Below are positions 30,629-41,726 of a stretch of DNA of 48,119 bases, piece by piece (positions within the stretch are counted from its first letter, which is position 1; every line of letters starts with the position of its first letter). The notes under the pieces were generated by a model, which saw only the letters and a list, made by a program, of their open reading frames with translations, made no database searches and was not told the origin of the DNA. Origin of the DNA: a virus (Duplodnaviria > Heunggongvirae > Uroviricota > Caudoviricetes); IMG/VR virus record IMGVR_UViG_643348551_000006, positions 1-48,119 of that record. One strand, written 5' to 3'. Both the position numbers and the translations under genes were made by a program.

Positions 30629-30704
<76 letters not shown>

Positions 30705-31661: not shown

Positions 31662-32341
31662 ACACTTTGCTTTGAAAATGCCGTCTTTTGTTCTGAACGT
31701 GTTCTCATCACAAACAATAAAGCCTCACTATCCAGCCGGTGGAAAATGTGTTTCATTGCAACCCAGTGACCAGTAAATGTTTTGGACCAGTTTTTAGTTG
31801 TCACTCCCGCCAGTAATGCCAGTTCCTGATATTCATAAGTTTCACGCCCAGCTAGCTCACTCTTCACATCCTGTGCCGCCAGCCAGATTAATTTTTTCAG
31901 GCGCTCCCGTGTTTTCTCCGCAATTTTTCTGGTACCAGATTGCGCGTTAAATTCATTCCACGCCCACTGTGTTATCGCAATCTGGTGTTCCCAGCAAATG
32001 CTGCCGCTGTAACACCACAGCAACCAGGCTTTATGGTGTTCTTCAAGAGACAGAACCGCCCGTCGCCATGATGATGTCGAAAACTCAACCTGACTTACCA
32101 GAGGAATTGACGTCTTCTTTGCCAGCGATTGTTTCCCCGGGATTGGTGGATTATCCAGCGTGATCATTTTTCCGGTCACTTCATCGCGGTACCGGATTTT
32201 TTTACGCCTGTAACGCCCGGTATCAAACATGGCATTCTCCTGCCAGGCTTCAAGCTGACCTTTTGTTGCTCCACTCAAATCGGCGGTGGCGATAATGAGC
32301 TGTTCACGCACAAACTGTAAATACTGGTTATTCATGCGCAC
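31646..32341 (-). CDS. Putative late-gene antiterminator Q (assigned by position between rusA and the PR'/tR'-like elements)
   Basis: 231 aa; no motif recognised by eye. Call rests on the conserved lambdoid order rusA - Q - PR' - lysis. Confidence 0.45.
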   Translation of the reverse strand: MRMNNQYLQFVREQLIIATADLSGATKGQLEAWQENAMFDTGRYRRKKIRYRDEVTGKMITLDNPPIPGKQSLAKKTSIPLVSQVEFSTSSWRRAVLSLEEHHKAWLLWCYSGSICWEHQIAITQWAWNEFNAQSGTRKIAEKTRERLKKLIWLAAQDVKSELAGRETYEYQELALLAGVTTKNWSKTFTGHWVAMKHIFHRLDSEALLFVMRTRSEQKTAFSKQSVAKVD

Positions 32342-32697
32342 TCCAGCCCTGTGATTTTTATCCCCAACCGACCACCAGGAACGACCTGACCGCGCACAAT
32401 ATTGATTTCATCAAACTGCTCGTCGTCGATAAGCAACCCCGCATGTGTCAGTGCATCCAGTGGTGCTTTCAGGATATTGTCCAGGTCACGACGGCGCTTA
32501 TCCGGCGGCTCTGCAGTAATTTTTATTGCCAGCCTTCCGGACAGGTTTAATTTCAGCCGCTGCTGGCGAACAATTAGCGCCACATCACGGCGATAACGCT
32601 TTCCGGCTTCCGAGATGAAATACGTATTGCCATGACGTCGCCAGTAGGTATTCACCGTTGGCGGGTAAGGCAAAACAAATTCTATGCGTTCGGTCAT
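32332..32697 (-). CDS. rusA: Holliday-junction resolvase RusA
   Basis: 121 aa MTERIEFVLPYPPTVNTYWRRHGN...PDKRRRDLDNILKAPLDALTHAGLLIDDEQ matches RusA (...PWPPSNNRYY...[20 protein letters not shown]...). Confidence 0.9.
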   Translation of the reverse strand: MTERIEFVLPYPPTVNTYWRRHGNTYFISEAGKRYRRDVALIVRQQRLKLNLSGRLAIKITAEPPDKRRRDLDNILKAPLDALTHAGLLIDDEQFDEINIVRGQVVPGGRLGIKITGLECA

Positions 32698-33882
32698 TCA
32701 TGCTTTCCACTTCAGGACACCCGAATTTCTCGCGTGCATTAAAAAACGAATCAGCAACAACAGCTGGCTGCCGTGTTTTTCTTCAAAATCTTTTACCCCG
32801 GCGTGCAGTTCGTTATGACATTTACGGCACAGCGGAATAACAAACAAATCATCAGCCTTTGTTCCCATCCCTCCCAGTCCATGACCAATGATGTGATGCG
32901 GATCATCTGCCTGATTACCGCACGTCATGCATTTCTGCGTTTTTACCCAATGCGTGTATACAGGCATCTCTTCCCGTTGTGGTTTCTGGCGCTGGAGATA
33001 CTGAGCCGGTGACTCCGGATCAACGGCAATGCTGACCACCGTCTTTTCCTGTGGCAGGCTCTGTTGCTGGTGGACGTGAGGCGGTAGCACAATATTTTTT
33101 GTGCGCTGCTTCAGTATGCTGGTGGCTGTCTGCTCTCCCGGTACGATGTCGCTTTCGCGGTACAAGGAGCGGATTTTTTCCACACGTAACCCCAGAGAAC
33201 GACGTAATACTGCCTCCGGTAGCGCGTCCGCCACCTGATTGCAGACCGCCCACCAGGATAATTCAGCCAGCGATAATTCCCGCTCCTGCGTGCCATTCAT
33301 TGCATGGCGTATGACGTCAGTCATCCATGCTGACAGGTTTTGATGAGCAAGTTGCCCGAGTGATTCGGAGGTCTGGTCACGCAGCTGGTTGTCGCAGTGC
33401 CAGCACAACACCATCGCGCCGGTACCATAACGATGTATGACGGTTTCGCTGTGATGGTAGTCACCATGAGGCCACTGGCAGGATTTAACATGACGCAGGA
33501 GCCAGTCAGACAGTGCACCAGCGCCGCCGGCAGCACGAATCACCCGCTCATCGCTGAAAAATGGCAGTAATGATTTATCCTCCGCCAGCGGCTGGCGAAC
33601 GGCAGGAACAACTCCGGATGGCAGACCTCGCATGCTTTTGGGTTCCGGCTCCACCAGCACTCGAGGGTTATGAAATACCTGCATGGATTCACGGCCCGGC
33701 TTTAGCACCACCAGCCCAAGTTCCGGTACCAGAACAGGTCGAAGCAATACCCGCACGTTACCTCCAGATCCGTTGCTGGAATGTGCGGGACGGACGCGGT
33801 GGGCGTTCAGAGTAAGGCAGTCTGACTGAGATGATCCAGTGTCGGAAGTCGAGGCTGAGGTCTTTCTGAAACTCGTAACCAC
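32698..33882 (-). CDS. nin-region protein; C-terminal ~90 aa carries a DUF1364/YbcO-like Cys/His motif; N-terminal extent and true start uncertain
   Basis: C-terminus ...CMTCGNQADDPHHIIGHGLGGMGTKADDLFVIPLCRKCHNELH resembles the YbcO-type protein found next to rusA in DLP12. The 394-aa ORF overlaps the upstream ORF by ~125 nt, so the real start is probably internal (about 33684 or 33633) or two genes are fused. Confidence 0.5.
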   Translation of the reverse strand: MVTSFRKTSASTSDTGSSQSDCLTLNAHRVRPAHSSNGSGGNVRVLLRPVLVPELGLVVLKPGRESMQVFHNPRVLVEPEPKSMRGLPSGVVPAVRQPLAEDKSLLPFFSDERVIRAAGGAGALSDWLLRHVKSCQWPHGDYHHSETVIHRYGTGAMVLCWHCDNQLRDQTSESLGQLAHQNLSAWMTDVIRHAMNGTQERELSLAELSWWAVCNQVADALPEAVLRRSLGLRVEKIRSLYRESDIVPGEQTATSILKQRTKNIVLPPHVHQQQSLPQEKTVVSIAVDPESPAQYLQRQKPQREEMPVYTHWVKTQKCMTCGNQADDPHHIIGHGLGGMGTKADDLFVIPLCRKCHNELHAGVKDFEEKHGSQLLLLIRFLMHARNSGVLKWKA

Positions 33883-34196: not shown

Positions 34197-34352
34197 TTAC
34201 TTCTCAGATTCGTAGTCTACGAAGACAGCAACCTCCGTCTGGCCGGTTCGGATTCGTACCTCGCAGAGGTCTTTCCTCGTTACCAGTGCCGTCACTATGA
34301 CGGTTAAACAGATGACGATCAGGGCGATTAACATCGCCTTTTGCTGCTTCAT
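34197..34352 (-). CDS. hokD: Hok/Gef-family type I toxin (51 aa)
   Basis: MKQQKAMLIALIVICLTVIVTALVTRKDLCEVRIRTGQTEVAVF..., near-identical to E. coli HokD/HokC; in-frame upstream extension to 34409 resembles a mok-type leader. Confidence 0.8.
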   Translation of the reverse strand: MKQQKAMLIALIVICLTVIVTALVTRKDLCEVRIRTGQTEVAVFVDYESEK

Positions 34353-34480
34353 AGCCTGCTTCTCCTTGCCTTTCGGCACGTAAGAGGCTAACCTGATGTT
34401 GTCATGCATAGGGAGCCTCAGATTAATGTTAAGCGTCTTGCAGGACGCGTAATGTTAACTGGGGCTTTTCTCTATCTGCC
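34353..34480 (-). promoter_or_regulatory. hok leader region (expected mok start, Sok antisense RNA target, fold-back structure)
   Basis: Inverted repeat TCTATCTGCC...GGCAGATAGCC in the 5' leader. By analogy with hok/sok loci; Sok promoter not pinpointed. Confidence 0.35.
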
Positions 34481-34641
34481 TTTTGGTGTTCATGCCTGAG
34501 GCAGATAGCCTCAAGCACCCGCAGCAATTCTACTTAACTCTCCTTTTCCCGCAAACCGTTTTTATCCCCAGCGGCAAATCGAATACACCACCAGCGCCAC
34601 CGCCATCGCAATTCCTACCGTTGTGAATGCTTCAGGCCAGG

Positions 34642-36540: not shown

Positions 36541-36898
36541 TTATTCAGTTCTGGATTTTGTCGCCCTGCGTATCCGCGCTTTCGCGTTACGCTCAATCTG
36601 AATTAACTTTTCTATATTTTTCCGCCTTTCCTGCTCCTCCTGGCGCAATAGCCTTACATCATCTGCCAGTCTGGTTTCTCTTTTCGCTACTGAGAGCATC
36701 CAGTCAAACGGCTCCACAACTGCACCGCAGATTTTACAGCGGACCTGACGCTCTTTTTCGTCAACCCGGACAGAAGCGTGATGGCAATATGGTCTTTCCG
36801 ATGGCTCATAAAGAAAATTAACCTGATTACGTGGGTCATCCTCTTTTACCGGAAATAAAACAATATTACTTAACTCATCTTCTGGTTTTATTTCCACG
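36541..36898 (-). CDS. Hypothetical zinc-ribbon protein; start inferred at GTG preceded by AAGGAG
   Basis: CHH...CKIC motif; minus strand AAAGGAGAGTGAcGTGGAAATAAAA gives a strong SD before a GTG placed 2 nt after the Ead-like stop. The track ORF extends to 36978. Confidence 0.4.
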
Positions 36899-37456
36899 TC
36901 ACTCTCCTTTGATGCGAACGCCAGCGACGCGTGGCACATTAACTTCCACAATGCGCACAGTTGGTTTGTACATCTCAATTGCTGTCAGCCAGTCAGCGCC
37001 GGTCATGCGCTTTTCTGCATCGCCATTAGTCCACTTAACCGGTACACCAATAGCCTTCATCGCGATTTCTATTTCCCCGGCAATGGCGCTTTTTCCGCAA
37101 CCAGTAAAACCAGATACAACGACAAGAACTTCGCCTTTGGCTGGTTTTATTTCCCGTGCTTCCAGTTCTGCAATGCGCTTTTTTGCTGCCTCCAGTTCAT
37201 CCAGTAATGCCAGCACGGTAGCCGGGCTAGCCTCTGCTATGAATTCTGCGTTTGCATAAGCCTGAGCATCTGTTTCAACCAGGCAGTTAACGTGACATTC
37301 TGCAATCACGCCACCGGGTTCTCCTTTCCATTTTTGACAAACAAAAACCCCTGTTAAATTGCCGTGCTGGTTAACAGATGTATGCCCTACGATGTAGTTT
37401 CCTTTAGTTGCTTTCTCTGCCTTTTCACGCAGCGCCTGAAAGTTAATTTCGCTCAC
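36899..37456 (-). CDS. Ead/Ea22-like protein with a Walker A (P-loop) motif
   Basis: N-terminus MSEINFQALREKAEKATKGNY... typical of Ead/Ea22-like prophage proteins; internal VVSGFTGCGKSAIAG matches GxxxxGK[ST]. Confidence 0.55.
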   Translation of the reverse strand: MSEINFQALREKAEKATKGNYIVGHTSVNQHGNLTGVFVCQKWKGEPGGVIAECHVNCLVETDAQAYANAEFIAEASPATVLALLDELEAAKKRIAELEAREIKPAKGEVLVVVSGFTGCGKSAIAGEIEIAMKAIGVPVKWTNGDAEKRMTGADWLTAIEMYKPTVRIVEVNVPRVAGVRIKGE

Positions 37457-37730
37457 TGGTTGCTGCCTCCTGTCGGAACATCACGATCATCAGGCCATCT
37501 TTTGTTGCTACCCTGGCTGTTGTACCAGGCTCTATGCTGCTAAGGTCAAATGCATCGCAGAACTCATCTAACACTTTCTGGCGTCTCTCCTGTTTGCGGC
37601 GCTTTTCCCACTGCCTCAGAAAAACAGAGGTCACCCACTTCCCCGCGCTGAACATGATGTAAAACCAACCAAGCAGGGCCAACCCCGTGTTGAGGGCTGT
37701 ATCAATCGTTATTGTTGTGTCGATATTCAC
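37443..37730 (-). CDS. Small membrane protein (95 aa)
   Basis: TM segment LALLGWFYIMFSAGKWVTSVF followed by a basic stretch. Confidence 0.4.
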   Translation of the reverse strand: MNIDTTITIDTALNTGLALLGWFYIMFSAGKWVTSVFLRQWEKRRKQERRQKVLDEFCDAFDLSSIEPGTTARVATKDGLMIVMFRQEAATSERN

Positions 37731-38023
37731 TGTGTCTTCTCCTGGAAAATAACCGCATGCCCCAGTTTCTCCGCCAGTGCCAATTCTGCCTTAGCACCTG
37801 CTGACCGCTGCCAGCCTTTCAGCATGTAAATCGCATCCACACAACGAATCATTGCCATGCAAATATCCATGTAGTGTGGCTGTGTCAGCCCGTCCGGAAG
37901 TACTGCCGGGTTTAAGACTGTATGCCCTTCCCGTTTCAGTTCCTCTTCCGCCTTGTGGAACGCCTCACGGTTGAAATTTTTATACCCGGTCATTGGACCG
38001 GCGATATAGACTCTCACCCTCAC
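37727..38023 (-). CDS. DUF4406-family protein (nucleoside 2-deoxyribosyltransferase-like fold)
   Basis: MRVRVYIAGPMTGYKNFNREAFHKAEEELKREGHTVLNPAV... matches the DUF4406 N-terminal signature YIAGPMTG. Confidence 0.6.
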   Translation of the reverse strand: MRVRVYIAGPMTGYKNFNREAFHKAEEELKREGHTVLNPAVLPDGLTQPHYMDICMAMIRCVDAIYMLKGWQRSAGAKAELALAEKLGHAVIFQEKTQ

Positions 38024-38442
38024 GCCATCACCTCCTGAAAATTACCCTGATAAAACGCCAACACTCGCTGCATAACCTCACTCTTCCGGCACTCGCGACA
38101 GATTATGTTCAGGTGCCTGTCGTAGCGGCGTATTTCTCCGTCTGGTAACGACCAGATAAAGTCCGGATCAACTACAGATGTTTTCTTCAGCTTTGCTCTC
38201 GAGAGTTTTTTGCGGGCGTTTTGCCAGTCCTTACGAGCCTGTTCTGACGGGAATAACCCATAGCCAGAGTTGTATACATCCCCACTGGCAACCAGCTCTC
38301 TGGCCAGAACGTTCATCAGATATCTTGTTGCCCCAGTTTTAGTTTCCAGTTGTCTTAACGTCTCGCGCCCACTCTGGCGTACAAGTTCAACAACCTGCCC
38401 TTTAATTTTTTCCCGCTCTTCTTGTGTAAATACTTTTGCCAC
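38020..38442 (-). CDS. Hypothetical protein (140 aa), possibly DNA-binding
   Basis: ORF between the replication protein gene and DUF4406; no firm motif. Confidence 0.4.
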   Translation of the reverse strand: MAKVFTQEEREKIKGQVVELVRQSGRETLRQLETKTGATRYLMNVLARELVASGDVYNSGYGLFPSEQARKDWQNARKKLSRAKLKKTSVVDPDFIWSLPDGEIRRYDRHLNIICRECRKSEVMQRVLAFYQGNFQEVMA

Positions 38443-38482
38443 AAGCCCTCCTGAAAATTACCTCATGACCAGAAATTAACAC

Positions 38483-39703
38483 TTACCCCCTGAACCCCGG
38501 CGGAATTTCGGTGTCCGGTTCAGAAATATGATTCACACAACGCTGGTTGTTCGTGCCGCTTACCGGGAGCAACCAGGGGTTTTCAAAATTCCGGTCCGGT
38601 CCAAAAAACGTCGTCGCTCGCTGAACAAATTCCGTTCCCGTTTTCCCGGTAGCTGCCAGGTATCTTGCGTAACGCCTCACGCCATCCAGCATGGCCTCTG
38701 GTGGCACCCCCTCACGTAATCTGGCCTTCCAGGCACTGAAAGCGGATTTCTTCGGGTTTGCCCCGGCACGCAACGGGTACTCCCGCCAGACCTGTTCGAA
38801 CACATCCGGATAATCCACTCGTCCCACAGACAGCCCGGTGTTTTCCGGGACTACCCGATCGGCTTCCCGCTGAATGGCGGAATCGGCTTCAGGCTGCTGC
38901 AGTTGGTGTGATTGCTCCGGCCTTGGGGTCATCACCTGCTGCACAGCGCCCGAATCGGCTTTCAGCGCATACGCTGAATCGGCTTCCGGTGTCGTGCCTG
39001 CTGGCTGACCAGGATTGACGGTCTGAACATCCCCTGCCTGGTTCGTGGTGTTTTTTTCGCCATGAACCATAGTGTTTTTGTCCTGTTCCTGTTCTTTCTC
39101 CTGCTCCTGTTCTTGGCTTCGAAGCCCCTTAAAAGCCCCTTCGAAGCCCCTTACCGAATTTCGGCTATTATTCCGCCTCACATCCAGATGGAAATCCGTT
39201 TTATATCTGTCGTAAAACGCTGACAGAAAAGCGTTTTCAGGTAATGATGCATACTCATTCCTGACACCTGCACAACGGTTATCGCCAGGCTTCAACGTTT
39301 TCCCAACCTGCCAGGCTGCCATTTCATGGACCCAGACCATCTCGGCATCATGGTCATAGCTACAAAAACCAGCTTCAACAGCCCTTTTAAGCCCCTTTGA
39401 AGCCCCTTCCAGACCAAGCCCGGTTTCATGAGCAAGGTATAAAACTGGCAGGTAATACAAACCCAGCATATTTGCGTGAGGGGATGTCATCAGGTAAAAA
39501 GCAACAACTTGCGCTTCTGCACCCGCCTTTCTAAGTTCTCTCCCCGTTTCTCCCAGCCAGAATCGCGGAGAAACTTTTGCGTAATCACGCATGGCTACCT
39601 CATCTGGTGCCGAACCTTCCTCCGGATATAATCTGTGGTTCCCAATCGACAGAACCAGAGGAGGTTCGACATGTATTTTTTGAAAAGCCTTTATCAGGCT
39701 CAT
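38483..39703 (-). CDS. Putative phage replication initiation protein (YdaU/DUF1376-like)
   Basis: 406 aa; N-terminal ...SPRFWLGETGRELRKAGAEAQVVAFYLMTSP...; Gln/Glu-rich linker; C-terminal conserved segment ...YPDVFEQVWREYPLR...; sits downstream of Cro/YdaT-like genes. Moderate, by eye. Confidence 0.5.
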   Translation of the reverse strand: MSLIKAFQKIHVEPPLVLSIGNHRLYPEEGSAPDEVAMRDYAKVSPRFWLGETGRELRKAGAEAQVVAFYLMTSPHANMLGLYYLPVLYLAHETGLGLEGASKGLKRAVEAGFCSYDHDAEMVWVHEMAAWQVGKTLKPGDNRCAGVRNEYASLPENAFLSAFYDRYKTDFHLDVRRNNSRNSVRGFEGAFKGLRSQEQEQEKEQEQDKNTMVHGEKNTTNQAGDVQTVNPGQPAGTTPEADSAYALKADSGAVQQVMTPRPEQSHQLQQPEADSAIQREADRVVPENTGLSVGRVDYPDVFEQVWREYPLRAGANPKKSAFSAWKARLREGVPPEAMLDGVRRYARYLAATGKTGTEFVQRATTFFGPDRNFENPWLLPVSGTNNQRCVNHISEPDTEIPPGFRG

Positions 39704-39809
39704 GTATTAAATGTTGCAGCAACAAACCGCTGGTGTAACAGCCCCGAAATGCTCCCGGATTACAGAGCCTGGCTGCGCGCCGAAACATACCTTCGTCTCG
39801 ACATATTGA

Positions 39810-40319
39810 TTAGCGAACTTCAAAAAGAGACTGCATCCATTCATAACCTTCAGGGTATCGACGCTGTTCGCATTCTGGTATCGCGCCATAGTGCTCTCTC
39901 AATAATTGAAGTGCGTCATCTCTCTTTTTCTGAACTGATTTTCTTGCTTCAACCAGCTCTGGAATCAGCGAATATCCCACCGGAAGTGATCCAATACCCA
40001 CCTCATGTTGACGAGCAGTTACAAGATGTGCCATACAACCAGCGTGCTGGATTGACTCCCTGCTCAGAGGCTGAATGGGATCACTCTCTGCTGAAGAAAT
40101 ACCAAGATTTGTATAATCCTCAATAAGCCCGGCACACGCTTCTGCATCAGCCAGCTTTATTCTGGTTTCCTTGCGCTGTTCTCTGGCTGACAAACGCCAG
40201 AGCAGCGCATTAGCTTTATGTATCAACCACTCTGCCAGCTCCACATCAGATAAACCGCCACGCCAGATGTGCGGACTGTTTTCGTAAACGCTCAGTGTCA
40301 ATTTTTTGTCATTACTCAT
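39810..40319 (-). CDS. Hypothetical early-region protein (169 aa from MSNDKKLTL)
   Basis: ORF-track ORF trimmed to the first Met that does not overlap the upstream gene. Confidence 0.4.
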   Translation of the reverse strand: MSNDKKLTLSVYENSPHIWRGGLSDVELAEWLIHKANALLWRLSAREQRKETRIKLADAEACAGLIEDYTNLGISSAESDPIQPLSRESIQHAGCMAHLVTARQHEVGIGSLPVGYSLIPELVEARKSVQKKRDDALQLLREHYGAIPECEQRRYPEGYEWMQSLFEVR

Positions 40320-40332
40320 ATTTATTACCCAA

Positions 40333-40758
40333 TTAATGCACAGCCAGAGTGTTTCCTGCCGGGCCACCACGATTCATCTGATTGAAACCAGCGATCGCCA
40401 CTGCGACAAAATCATCAGCGTCTCTCACCAGTCGTTCCCGCGTCTCCACCAGCTCCCGAAACCAGGCTGAACTGTGGCTGCGCATTCGGGCCACCAGCAG
40501 AGGAGGCATTGCTTTTTCGATCGCTGGTAACAACGCCTGAATTTTTTCAACTGCATCAGGGGTGTCTTTCTCCACCCAGCGGAAAATTTTCTGAGTATTG
40601 CGAGCCAGGGCTTCCGGATGGCTGTCGTCATACAGTTCCGGGAACGTCATTCCCAGCTCGAAATACGCTTTGGTAATTTTCGCAGCCGGTACTTTTTCGC
40701 CGTCCGGATGCGCCCAGGCATTCATCGCCATGCGGATATGTTCATGTTTGATTTTCAT
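40333..40758 (-). CDS. YdaT-family protein (CII-position early regulator)
   Basis: N-terminus MKIKHEHI... and overall similarity to Rac prophage YdaT; immediately downstream of the Cro-like gene. Confidence 0.6.
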   Translation of the reverse strand: MKIKHEHIRMAMNAWAHPDGEKVPAAKITKAYFELGMTFPELYDDSHPEALARNTQKIFRWVEKDTPDAVEKIQALLPAIEKAMPPLLVARMRSHSSAWFRELVETRERLVRDADDFVAVAIAGFNQMNRGGPAGNTLAVH

Positions 40759-40982
40759 GAATCACTCTTCCTTTTGTCCCGGGTGGTATCCTTCTTTTTG
40801 TAAAGCTCTGGGTTCAAAGATAATTTTCCCTTGGAGTATGCAGCAGCTTCCGCAGCTCTCCCTTTCGGAACTATTTCACCGGGGCGCTTACGCCACATGT
40901 AAATAGCTTCGCGGGTTATCCCATAAAAATCAGCGACCCTCTGAACAGAGCCAAAAAACTGAACAAGTTCATCAACTCGCAT
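40755..40982 (-). CDS. Cro/YdaS-like HTH DNA-binding protein
   Basis: 75 aa with HTH (VADFYGITREAIYMWRKR); divergent from the CI gene across an operator-bearing intergenic region. Confidence 0.65.
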   Translation of the reverse strand: MRVDELVQFFGSVQRVADFYGITREAIYMWRKRPGEIVPKGRAAEAAAYSKGKLSLNPELYKKKDTTRDKRKSDS

Positions 40983-41078: not shown

Positions 41079-41726
41079 ATGATGGAAAGCCTTGGCATCA
41101 GGCTTAAGAAACTCAGAAAAGATAAGGGACTCACCCAAGTAGAACTGGGTAAGCTTTCAGGCGTGACTGGGGTTACTATAGGGTACTGGGAGAAAGATCT
41201 AAACGAACCCGGCAGCAAAGCTCTAAGTAAGTTAGCCCAGGCATTAGGAACTACTGAGTCCTATCTCCTGTATGGAGTATCGTCTCCTGAACTATCTTTT
41301 GTGCAGAGCAATCCAGGCACCAAGATCCCCTACTTTTCGTGGGGTGACGCGATTTCTTTCCTAATCTTAGAAGGAGAGAAAACAATGGGAAATGTCGATA
41401 GGATCACCACATTCTTTGATGTAGTGGAAGGTGATTTTGCCGTTTCAATGCCTGATGACACTATGCATAACCCCTCAGGGTCACCAAGTATCCCGGTTGG
41501 TGCCACTGTGATCCTAAGACCAGGAGAGAGTTATAAAAATGGCAGTATCGTCGCTGTAATAGTTCCAGATCCACTTACAAATGAACCGTCTATGACTATA
41601 AAAAAATTAGTTATTGATGGAAAACTTGTGTATTTAAGCCCTCTCAATCCGCGCTATCAATCATCCTTGCTTACGCCAGAGTGTAAAATTGTTGCCGTAG
41701 CAAAAGGTGTGCAGTTCAACCTATAA
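41079..41726 (+). CDS. cI: CI-type prophage repressor (N-terminal HTH, C-terminal S24 LexA-like autopeptidase domain)
   Basis: HTH LTQVELGKLSGVTGVTIGYWE; C-terminal S24-like region ...KLVIDGKLVYLSPLNP.... Not DicA-like, which lacks the peptidase domain. Confidence 0.85.
   Translation: MMESLGIRLKKLRKDKGLTQVELGKLSGVTGVTIGYWEKDLNEPGSKALSKLAQALGTTESYLLYGVSSPELSFVQSNPGTKIPYFSWGDAISFLILEGEKTMGNVDRITTFFDVVEGDFAVSMPDDTMHNPSGSPSIPVGATVILRPGESYKNGSIVAVIVPDPLTNEPSMTIKKLVIDGKLVYLSPLNPRYQSSLLTPECKIVAVAKGVQFNL

Follow-up and report, generated by a model that had tools for sequence, protein, structure and literature searches.

Four probably exchangeable early accessory genes of a Rac/Qin-type lambdoid prophage and the P-loop mini-domain carried by one of them

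The window analyzed here is a stretch of 48,119 nucleotides (positions 1 to 48,119 of the IMG/VR virus record IMGVR_UViG_643348551_000006) that represents a lambdoid prophage of the Rac/Qin type, with its genes mostly on the minus strand. Within it, the interval 36899-38442 on the minus strand contains exactly four genes, encoding DUF977, DUF4406, DUF4752, and Ead_Ea22 proteins, and we consider it quite likely that these are a mosaic string of independently exchangeable early accessory genes rather than a co-evolving system. An earlier note, made from the sequence alone, had proposed a linked cluster of the Ea22-type P-loop gene, a membrane protein gene, and the DUF4406 gene. That claim fails because a co-occurrence check found the three to be individually common and unlinked, which is the outcome the note itself had named as its refutation. 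The block is best regarded as one more combination of interchangeable lambdoid early genes and should not be catalogued as a multi-gene system; lambdoid phages are known to have mosaic, non-essential accessory regions among their early genes, and what is new here is this combination. The only element worth following up is the P-loop mini-domain at the end of the Ea22-type protein.

Gene content and linkage of the interval

The four genes are listed in their order on the minus strand.

38020-38442, minus strand: DUF977 ("LygF") protein, 140 amino acids, directly after the replication gene (Pfam DUF977, E 4.8e-30)
37727-38023, minus strand: DUF4406 protein, 98 amino acids (PF14359, E 5.8e-38, 129.6 bits against a cut-off of 22)
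37443-37730, minus strand: DUF4752 protein, 95 amino acids (Pfam, E 3.7e-39; phrog_667, "unknown function")
36899-37456, minus strand: Ead/Ea22-family mosaic protein, 185 amino acids (PF13935, E 4.7e-24, 86 bits against a cut-off of 27)

Matches in Pfam, PHROGs, and Foldseek confirmed the identities that the earlier note had assigned, namely an Ead/Ea22-like protein, a DUF4406 protein with a fold like that of nucleoside 2-deoxyribosyltransferases (NDTs), and a small, probable membrane protein. The tight packing it described in the variable region after the replication gene was also confirmed from the coordinates, with overlapping or abutting GTG starts. An AGGAG-type ribosome-binding site and a GTG start precede each of the four genes. 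Stop and start overlap as GTGA at 38020-38023 (DUF977/DUF4406) and at 37727-37730 (DUF4406/DUF4752), the DUF4752 and Ea22-type genes overlap by 14 nt (37443-37456), and a 1-nt gap at 36898 separates the last gene from a downstream zinc-ribbon gene. Apparent GTG starts were seen in all five successive minus-strand genes from DUF977 to the zinc-ribbon gene (38442, 38023, 37730, 37456, and 36897). No minus-strand terminator-like site was found within 36899-38442. A scan for promoters and terminators returned no more sites than shuffled sequence, and so no internal regulatory element is claimed. From the ribosome-binding sites, the abutting or overlapping starts, and the lack of an internal terminator, we infer a single early transcript with translational coupling. 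In a Rac/Qin-type lambdoid prophage such as this one, the interval would be a portion of the rightward early operon; upon induction or infection, all four genes would be transcribed together with the replication genes and translated by coupling.

Linkage was examined in loci from IMG/VR, with 80 fetched for each of three anchors (DUF4406, the P-loop module, and DUF4752), dereplicated, and required to have 1.5 kb of flank. All four genes were found together in 0/241 loci. Pairwise linkage was 3-9%, save for DUF977 and DUF4406, which were linked in 78% of close relatives and in 0/3 distant lineages. DUF977 lay directly upstream of DUF4406 in 54/69 loci and the zinc-ribbon gene lay downstream of DUF4406 in 37/68; the position immediately after DUF4406 was occupied by DUF4752 in 5/68 loci and by the P-loop cassette in 3/68. 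With the P-loop module as anchor, the upstream gene was DUF4406 in 2/71 loci and DUF4752 in 6/71, and with DUF4752 as anchor, DUF4406 was upstream in 6/69 loci and the P-loop cassette downstream in 4/70. Conserved co-occurrence and order across lineages, as expected for a co-evolving system, was not observed.

The distribution of the genes among complete genomes is consistent with these counts. Coverage of 36541-38442 (the interval plus the zinc-ribbon gene) stays below 80% in every phage record and every complete E. coli genome, while some part of this region is present in 4335 of 5426 complete E. coli genomes. DUF4406 occurs in 1220 of these, the P-loop module in 364, and this DUF4752 allele in 40, a spread of about 30-fold. 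In E. coli relatives, the usual backbone consists of the replication gene, the Ren-like DUF977 gene, DUF4406, one Ea22-type gene, and the zinc-ribbon gene. Compared with this backbone, the window has an additional DUF4752 gene, and its Ea22-type gene ends in the P-loop cassette. The closest annotated relatives, which are induced E. coli prophages and ST131-type prophages, have the same backbone; the best are about 91% identical, but over just 59% of the early region. DUF4406 homologues with 60-64% identity, found in Enterobacter, Kluyvera, and Edwardsiella prophages, reside in the other early operon, where they are flanked by RecT/ERF/RdgC on one side and int on the other and have no DUF977 gene nearby.

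The interval resembles the nin and exo-xis regions of lambda in that small early genes are tightly packed, coupled, and swapped at conserved junctions, and in that the genes are mostly dispensable and without assigned function. However, the gene content of lambda ninB-ninI is wholly unlike that of the window, and Ea22-type, DUF4406, and DUF4752 genes lie on the exo-xis side in other phages, whereas in the window they are on the replication/nin side.

The Ea22-type protein and its P-loop mini-domain

The 185-aa protein is composed of an Ead_Ea22 N-terminal domain, a coiled-coil linker, and a P-loop mini-domain as its C-terminal cassette. The Ead_Ea22 Pfam match is limited to residues 2-101, and two PHROGs divide the protein between them, phrog_6389 over residues 1-70 and phrog_11761 over residues 79-185. 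The N-terminal ~80 residues are nearly identical to those of ArgO145 gp13 and gp18, and in both ArgO145 and NCTC9112 the same Ead N-terminus is followed by other C-terminal domains with no Walker motif. In an ST131-type prophage (L001, 4359-4922), the same P-loop C-terminal domain follows an unrelated, non-Ead N-terminus, to which it is joined at ELEAREIKPAKGE. Between DUF4406 and the zinc-ribbon gene there is always some cassette, but not always the same one; in 33/45 loci it is a ~440-bp gene. [quoted passage not shown] Altogether, the Ea22-type combinations (window 36899-37180, L001, L027/L065, and L262 2218-2766) comprise C-terminal domains of at least three unrelated types and N-terminal domains of at least two, and the cassette is bounded by RIAELEARE upstream and G[IV]RIKGE-stop downstream. 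Judging from their conservation in sequence, these junctions (the two linkers and a 16-nt repeat described below) are likely sites of cassette exchange.

Ea22 proteins have been described as mosaic, with a common N-terminus and coiled coil followed by dissimilar C-terminal domains, and as tetrameric, with tetramers reported for both lambda and P27 Ea22 (PMC10834534). The window gene fits this published picture of a shared N-terminus and swappable C-terminal domain: like lambda Ea22 and the Stx-phage variants V1-V3 (PMC10834534, PMC7093339), its product has an Ead_Ea22 N-terminus, a coiled coil, and an exchangeable C-terminal domain. In contrast with lambda Ea22, that domain is the P-loop mini-domain rather than the lambda-type one, and lambda ea22 lies between exo and xis, whereas the window gene follows the replication gene in the rightward operon. 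A sequence search of the PDB with the C-terminal domain of the Ea22-type protein matched no chain at E <= 1, and hence not the solved C-terminal domain of lambda Ea22; the paper on that structure does not mention Walker motifs, P-loops, or ATP. Exchange of cassettes between two linkers bears on the annotation of the many proteins labelled "ead/Ea22-like" in E. coli and Stx phages.

The mini-domain and its motif map as follows.

36929-37135, minus strand: autonomous P-loop module of ~70 residues (residues 108-176)
37088-37111, minus strand: Walker A motif GFTGCGKS (residues 116-123)

The Walker A motif, which the earlier note had called clear, is present, and it belongs to a conserved family. 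The bare pattern G-x4-G-K-[ST] gave 2 matches in a six-frame translation of the window against 1.9 +/- 1.4 in shuffles, which is not above chance. We therefore rely on conservation. An exhaustive search with residues 96-185 against 1.84 billion representatives of 50%-identity clusters recovered a family of 444 clusters at E <= 1e-3, and G-x-T-G-x-G-K-S was kept in 148 of the 150 representatives listed, indicating that the motif is under constraint although the bare pattern is at chance level. In a diverse alignment (A1), the G, K, and S of Walker A are invariant, and A124, A126, G127, E128, E130, G137, W142, E148, K149, T152, D155, W156, E161, Y163, P165, I169, and E171 are invariant or nearly so; the pattern of the module is GEVLVxVSGxTGxGKSAIAGEIEI...EK.MT.ADW...YKP.V.IVE. 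Ahead of the motif is the hydrophobic EVLVVVS, and after it comes a predicted helix (model residues 23-36), in the strand-motif-helix order expected of a P-loop. The pattern predicted for the whole module is a strand, GFTGCGKS, a helix, a strand bearing NGD, further helices, and a last strand, VRIVE.

The family occurs in prophages of alpha-, beta-, and gamma-proteobacteria and on metagenome contigs, in three architectures. In enterobacterial prophages, the module is C-terminal to Ead/Ea22 coiled coils; elsewhere it is found at either end of 260-623-aa proteins without Pfam domains, whose composition suggests high-GC proteobacteria; and in many products of 69-90 aa it is the whole protein. Six stand-alone or short examples (72-128 aa) were inspected, from Achromobacter, Methylobacterium, Mesorhizobium, Pandoraea, and two metagenome contigs. 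In 5/6, the gene lies among small early genes with an integrase a few kb off, and in the Achromobacter and Mesorhizobium prophages RecT, ERF, or RdgC genes are upstream; on the sixth, a contig, neither an integrase nor a recombination gene was seen. No consistent partner gene recurs across the six lineages: an N6/N4 DNA methyltransferase gene follows the P-loop mini-gene in Achromobacter only, and a Lar-like gene is nearby in Pandoraea and Mesorhizobium only. In two Achromobacter loci (L242 and L244, 6001-6961), the mini-gene overlaps the methyltransferase start by 11 nt, and in two others (L243 and L245) the methyltransferase is apparently split. The Pandoraea mini-gene (L266, 2583-5387) directly follows a Lar-type restriction-alleviation gene, immediately upstream of which is a bAvd-reverse transcriptase pair resembling a diversity-generating retroelement (DGR-like), and the Mesorhizobium one (L264, 2992-5264) is two genes after a Lar-type gene. 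Among E. coli matches to the module DNA, 81/394 are on plasmids (e.g., NZ_CP063485.1, 35978-36214), including a 39-kb record, which suggests that phage-plasmids carry the same Ea22-type gene.

Comparisons of the module with known P-loop proteins pointed in different directions. None of the Pfam P-loop families matched the window protein at threshold, with APS_kinase the best at 16 bits against a cut-off of 21.1, and the module, which PHROGs list as "unknown function", was matched at threshold by no Pfam or NCBIfam model. Sub-threshold matches to APS_kinase and AAA_16 were obtained for 89/117 and 100/117 family members, respectively, with a best member E-value of 8.7e-6. A profile search of the PDB returned almost exclusively P-loop proteins, all at E >= 0.034 and over the strand-loop-helix only. 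In hhalign, the module aligned with a hand-entered sequence of E. coli CysC at 94.9% probability (E 4.5e-8, 52 columns), the matched part being CysC 28-86, which comprises strand 1, Walker A, helix 1, strand 2, and DGD. Compared with APS kinase (CysC, PF01583) and other SIMIBI/kinase-type nucleoside triphosphatases (NTPases), the module has approximately the first third only; it lacks the other core strands as well as the lid and substrate site, its last ~25 residues are unique, and all scores are below family thresholds. The AlphaFold2 model (pLDDT 85.6) consists of three helices with no strands by DSSP and found no match in Foldseek. Because of these missing strands, the fold and ligand binding of the module are uncertain. 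The P-loop of the earlier note is therefore not supported in the NTPase sense, given a domain of ~70 residues, its sub-threshold APS_kinase score, and the empty Foldseek search.

We take the module to derive genuinely from a kinase-type P-loop fold, of which it represents the first third, as the profile alignments suggest, and think that it probably needs oligomerization. Engineered beta-(P-loop)-alpha fragments bind nucleoside triphosphates, polyphosphate, and single-stranded DNA as oligomers (bioRxiv 10.1101/2020.07.30.228619). By analogy, the Ead domain and coiled coil would oligomerize and display the ~70-residue, fragment-like P-loop domain, and this domain would most likely bind a phosphate-bearing ligand, be it a nucleotide, polyphosphate, or nucleic acid; binding of phosphate ligands is the likeliest activity because Ea22 proteins are tetramers and the engineered oligomers bind such ligands. 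The module shares with these "P-loop prototypes" the form of a very small beta-(P-loop)-alpha unit, and the prototype 6c2u and a de novo designed ATPase were among its top PDB profile matches, although not significantly so (E 0.1 and 0.053). The prototypes are laboratory constructs, whereas the module is a natural, strongly conserved phage family with extra invariant residues, for which binding is predicted. We suggest tentatively, on sequence grounds, that it may be a natural, autonomous, minimal P-loop family found in temperate phages, with its origin in the first third of an APS-kinase-like fold, oligomeric, used alone or on Ea22-type coiled coils, and binding a phosphate-bearing ligand, possibly a signalling nucleotide, early in infection. 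If so, it would be an extant counterpart of the engineered prototypes. The family is widespread and has no Pfam or NCBIfam model, and its small size suits rapid structural and ligand-binding work. If the module binds nucleotides, it would show the minimum of the P-loop fold that nature needs and could help to account for the role of the variable C-terminal domains of Ea22 proteins.

The Ren-like, DUF4406, and DUF4752 proteins

The individual roles proposed for the four genes are all inferred. The DUF977 protein is, from its sequence relationships, a homologue of lambda Ren. It matches phrog_142, "Ren-like exclusion protein", at E 4.5e-48, as lambda Ren itself does at E 1.6e-41, and it shows both this membership and the conserved location after the replication genes. 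In a pairwise BLASTP comparison with lambda Ren, 11/20 residues were identical in a C-terminal motif (E 2e-6), ECRxSxxMxRVLAxY, that is common to both proteins. The two differ in length (96 aa for lambda Ren, 140 aa here), their pairwise similarity is significant over these 20 residues only, and lambda Ren matches no Pfam family, DUF977 included. In classical genetics, lambda becomes sensitive to Rex exclusion when ren is mutated. A preprint describes Ren as probably replication-related and interacting with RexA/B in two-hybrid assays (bioRxiv 10.1101/2021.04.19.439022). The homologue here would probably modulate replication, guard the phage against the Rex-type exclusion that resident lambdoid prophages exert, or both, and among the four genes it alone has a documented link to inter-phage conflict. 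Literature searches for "LygF" returned name collisions and genome announcements only.

Two copies of a 16-nt direct repeat bracket the Ren-like gene.

38447-38462, minus strand: copy 1 of the repeat, GGTAATTTTCAGGAGG, with the Ren-like gene's ribosome-binding site inside it
38031-38046, minus strand: copy 2 of the repeat, GGTAATTTTCAGGAGG, containing the ribosome-binding site of DUF4406

These are 2 exact copies in the window where 0.01 would be expected. In related loci, the core of the repeat, TTTTCAGGAGG, was found upstream of DUF977, DUF4406, DUF4752, and, rarely, Ea22-type genes, and upstream of nothing else. We regard the repeat as a candidate recombination junction.

The fold of the DUF4406 protein can be assigned with confidence from its model as a minimal NDT/DNPH1-like fold. 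The protein matches phrog_355, "nucleoside 2-deoxyribosyltransferase", at E 6e-48, and its AlphaFold2 model (pLDDT 89.4, pTM 0.83) has four beta-alpha units with beta-alpha-beta-alpha-beta-alpha-beta topology. Against the PDB, Foldseek returned NDTs, the cytidine monophosphate (CMP) N-glycosidases MilB/BcmB, and DNPH1 (2a0k, 8pqt, 6qai, 4jem, and DNPH1 entries) at probability 1.00, TM 0.72-0.77, and a best E-value of 3.3e-5. Among 85 aligned homologues, Y6, N18, R19, S74, and E80 are invariant and D53 is nearly so; in the model, the Tyr is on strand 1, the Asp on helix 2, and the Ser-x5-Glu at the start of helix 3. The active site of the superfamily consists of a Tyr, an Asp, and a Glu nucleophile, which the placement of these residues matches. 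PDB sequence searches with the DUF4406 protein, as a single sequence and as a profile, gave no relevant match, and hhalign comparisons of its profile with DNPH1 and Lactobacillus leichmannii NDT (both sequences hand-entered) were not significant, which makes the mapping of the active site inferential at the level of residues. The protein thus shares with the NDT/DNPH1/MilB-BcmB superfamily its fold and the Tyr, Asp, and Ser-x5-Glu in the expected topological places, but it has 98 aa where NDTs have ~130-160, being ~50 residues shorter with the NDT C-terminal segment missing, and it has no sequence-level match to any solved member. We predict an N-glycosidase or transferase with a nucleoside or nucleotide as its substrate; going by the model, it would most likely cleave or transfer an N-glycosidic bond in a (deoxy)nucleoside or nucleotide. 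A literature search for "DUF4406" returned incidental mentions only, and a search for prophage nucleoside 2-deoxyribosyltransferases found nothing mechanistic. In the Enterobacter (L251-L254) and Kluyvera (L257-L259) loci, no more than one small gene separates DUF4406 from a Dam/DNA-methylase gene upstream of it (none does so in L254), and in all of these except L254 a TraR/DksA-type zinc-finger gene is found within three genes downstream of DUF4406. This neighbourhood may be a lead to the substrate or may just reflect common ancestry.

The DUF4752 protein is the 95-aa membrane protein of the earlier note, a description that stands as probable. Residues 13-30 are a run of 18 uncharged residues followed by the basic cluster RQWEKRRKQERRQK, as would befit a membrane segment, and the best 19-residue Kyte-Doolittle mean is 1.27; because this hydropathy is only moderate, the membrane call is not certain. 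The protein is thus probably a single-pass membrane protein with an N-terminal anchor, and the positive-inside rule predicts that its C-terminal part of ~55 residues is cytoplasmic. It would be a small membrane-anchored protein. An apparent fusion of DUF4406 and DUF4752 (P0397) might have served as Rosetta-stone evidence, but its C-terminal half does not share the reading frame of DUF4752, and we rejected it as a frameshifted read-through. Several prophages resident in E. coli carry frameshifted or truncated versions of the DUF4752 gene and of the Ea22-type gene next to it (L262, 3021-3307; L263, 2332-2955). Together with the P0397 read-through, these frameshifts point to weak selection on both genes in the lysogen.

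Alternative readings and the surrounding prophage

Several observations weigh against a mosaic of independent genes or against our reading of its parts. The order DUF4406, DUF4752, Ea22-type recurs in 85 complete E. coli genomes; in the 2 that were examined, the Ea22 C-terminal domain is not the P-loop one and pseudogenization has affected DUF4752, the Ea22 gene, or both. The sample used for linkage is made up of close enterobacterial relatives, and its counts ignore phylogeny. The P-loop module lacks beta-strands in its model, and the equivalence of the DUF4406 catalytic residues is based on topology and spacing, with the DNPH1 and NDT profile comparisons falling short of significance. Lastly, the adjacency and GTGA coupling of DUF977 and DUF4406 could mark a functional pair instead of shared descent. 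The two might then be a two-gene unit, for example a DNA-binding or replication factor with a nucleotide-modifying enzyme, with the other genes as passengers, and the identical 16-nt ribosome-binding-site block ahead of both is in keeping with this. Yet the distant DUF4406 homologues of Enterobacter, Kluyvera, and Edwardsiella have no DUF977 nearby, DUF977 is also directly followed by DUF4752 or Ea22-type genes, lambda carries ren and no DUF4406, and adjacency among alleles that are at least 90% identical is expected from common descent. We consider such a unit quite improbable.

An island of anti-defence or host-takeover genes, which the earlier note had suggested, would have several of the four proteins each neutralizing a host or prophage immunity mechanism, such as Ren acting against Rex, DUF4406 degrading a nucleotide immune signal or an NAD-derived messenger, and the P-loop module serving as a nucleotide sponge. 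The Ren homology of DUF977 fits this suggestion, as do the location in the early operon, the stand-alone P-loop mini-genes in early accessory regions near Lar-type genes in Pandoraea and Mesorhizobium, and the action of the NDT-like fold on nucleotides. Against it, ten proteins of the array gave no PADLOC match at E <= 0.01, an indirect test given that PADLOC models defence systems and not anti-defence proteins, and no NCBIfam match; their PHROG categories are "unknown" except for the Ren-like and NDT ones. Furthermore, the sole experimental data on Ea22 concern a pro-lysogenic effect and not anti-defence (PMC7093339), and the DUF4752 and Ea22 genes are often pseudogenized in resident prophages. 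On balance, the island seems rather unlikely. It is likewise unlikely, to a slightly greater degree, that the Ea22-P-loop protein is a true ATPase or kinase whose 70-residue modules complete a P-loop core through coiled-coil oligomerization and hydrolyze or transfer phosphate. The Walker A Lys and Ser and E128, E130, E148, and E171 are invariant, D146 and D155 are nearly so, the segment with NGD lines up with the APS kinase DGD, Ea22 proteins are tetrameric (PMC10834534), and the lack of paired strands in the monomer model could mean that the sheet forms between subunits. However, a complete P-loop core, with at least five strands, usually more than 150 residues, and Walker B on an adjacent strand, was not found in the module, which is unlikely to be a complete NTPase because it is too small. 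The mosaic of independently exchangeable genes remains our preferred reading.

The genes and other features around the interval are listed from the immunity region onward.

41079-41726, plus strand: cI-like repressor gene
40755-40982: cro
40333-40758: YdaT/cII-like gene
39810-40370, minus strand: open reading frame of 186 aa, phrog_8304 ("unknown function"), between the YdaT-like and replication genes and overlapping the YdaT-like 3' end
39635-40126, plus strand: open reading frame of 163 aa, antisense to the 186-aa one
38483-39703: replication protein, 406 aa (PHROG: DnaD-like loader / replication initiation)
36541-36897, minus strand: zinc-ribbon-like protein, 118 aa (phrog_1621, E 9.5e-56), outside 36899-38442
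35654-36025/36115: second Cys-rich protein
34197-34520, minus strand: hok/sok type I toxin-antitoxin locus (Rfam sok, 118 bits), with which the accessory array ends
32332-33882: DUF968/rusA, with Q farther along in the same order (reading rightward from the immunity region)

The replication protein had no Pfam match and was recognized by PHROGs only. Between its gene and DUF968/rusA lie approximately ten small genes, including two for Cys-rich proteins, as the earlier note had stated. One of these, the 118-aa protein, is Cys-rich with a sub-threshold match to Zn_Ribbon_TF; its gene is the usual downstream neighbour in the backbone, and the GTG start at 36897 is the one indicated by 118-aa orthologues. 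At the hok/sok locus, the Hok-like open reading frame has 70 aa, or a core of 50-51 aa, and the clearest intrinsic-terminator-like hairpin of the region is located just past it, at 34125-34112. Downstream of Q, a partial tRNA match (Rfam, 48.5 bits, model positions 8-63 of 71) was detected at 30640-30697 on the minus strand; ARAGORN called no tRNA at this position, and the match may represent a degraded phage tRNA gene.

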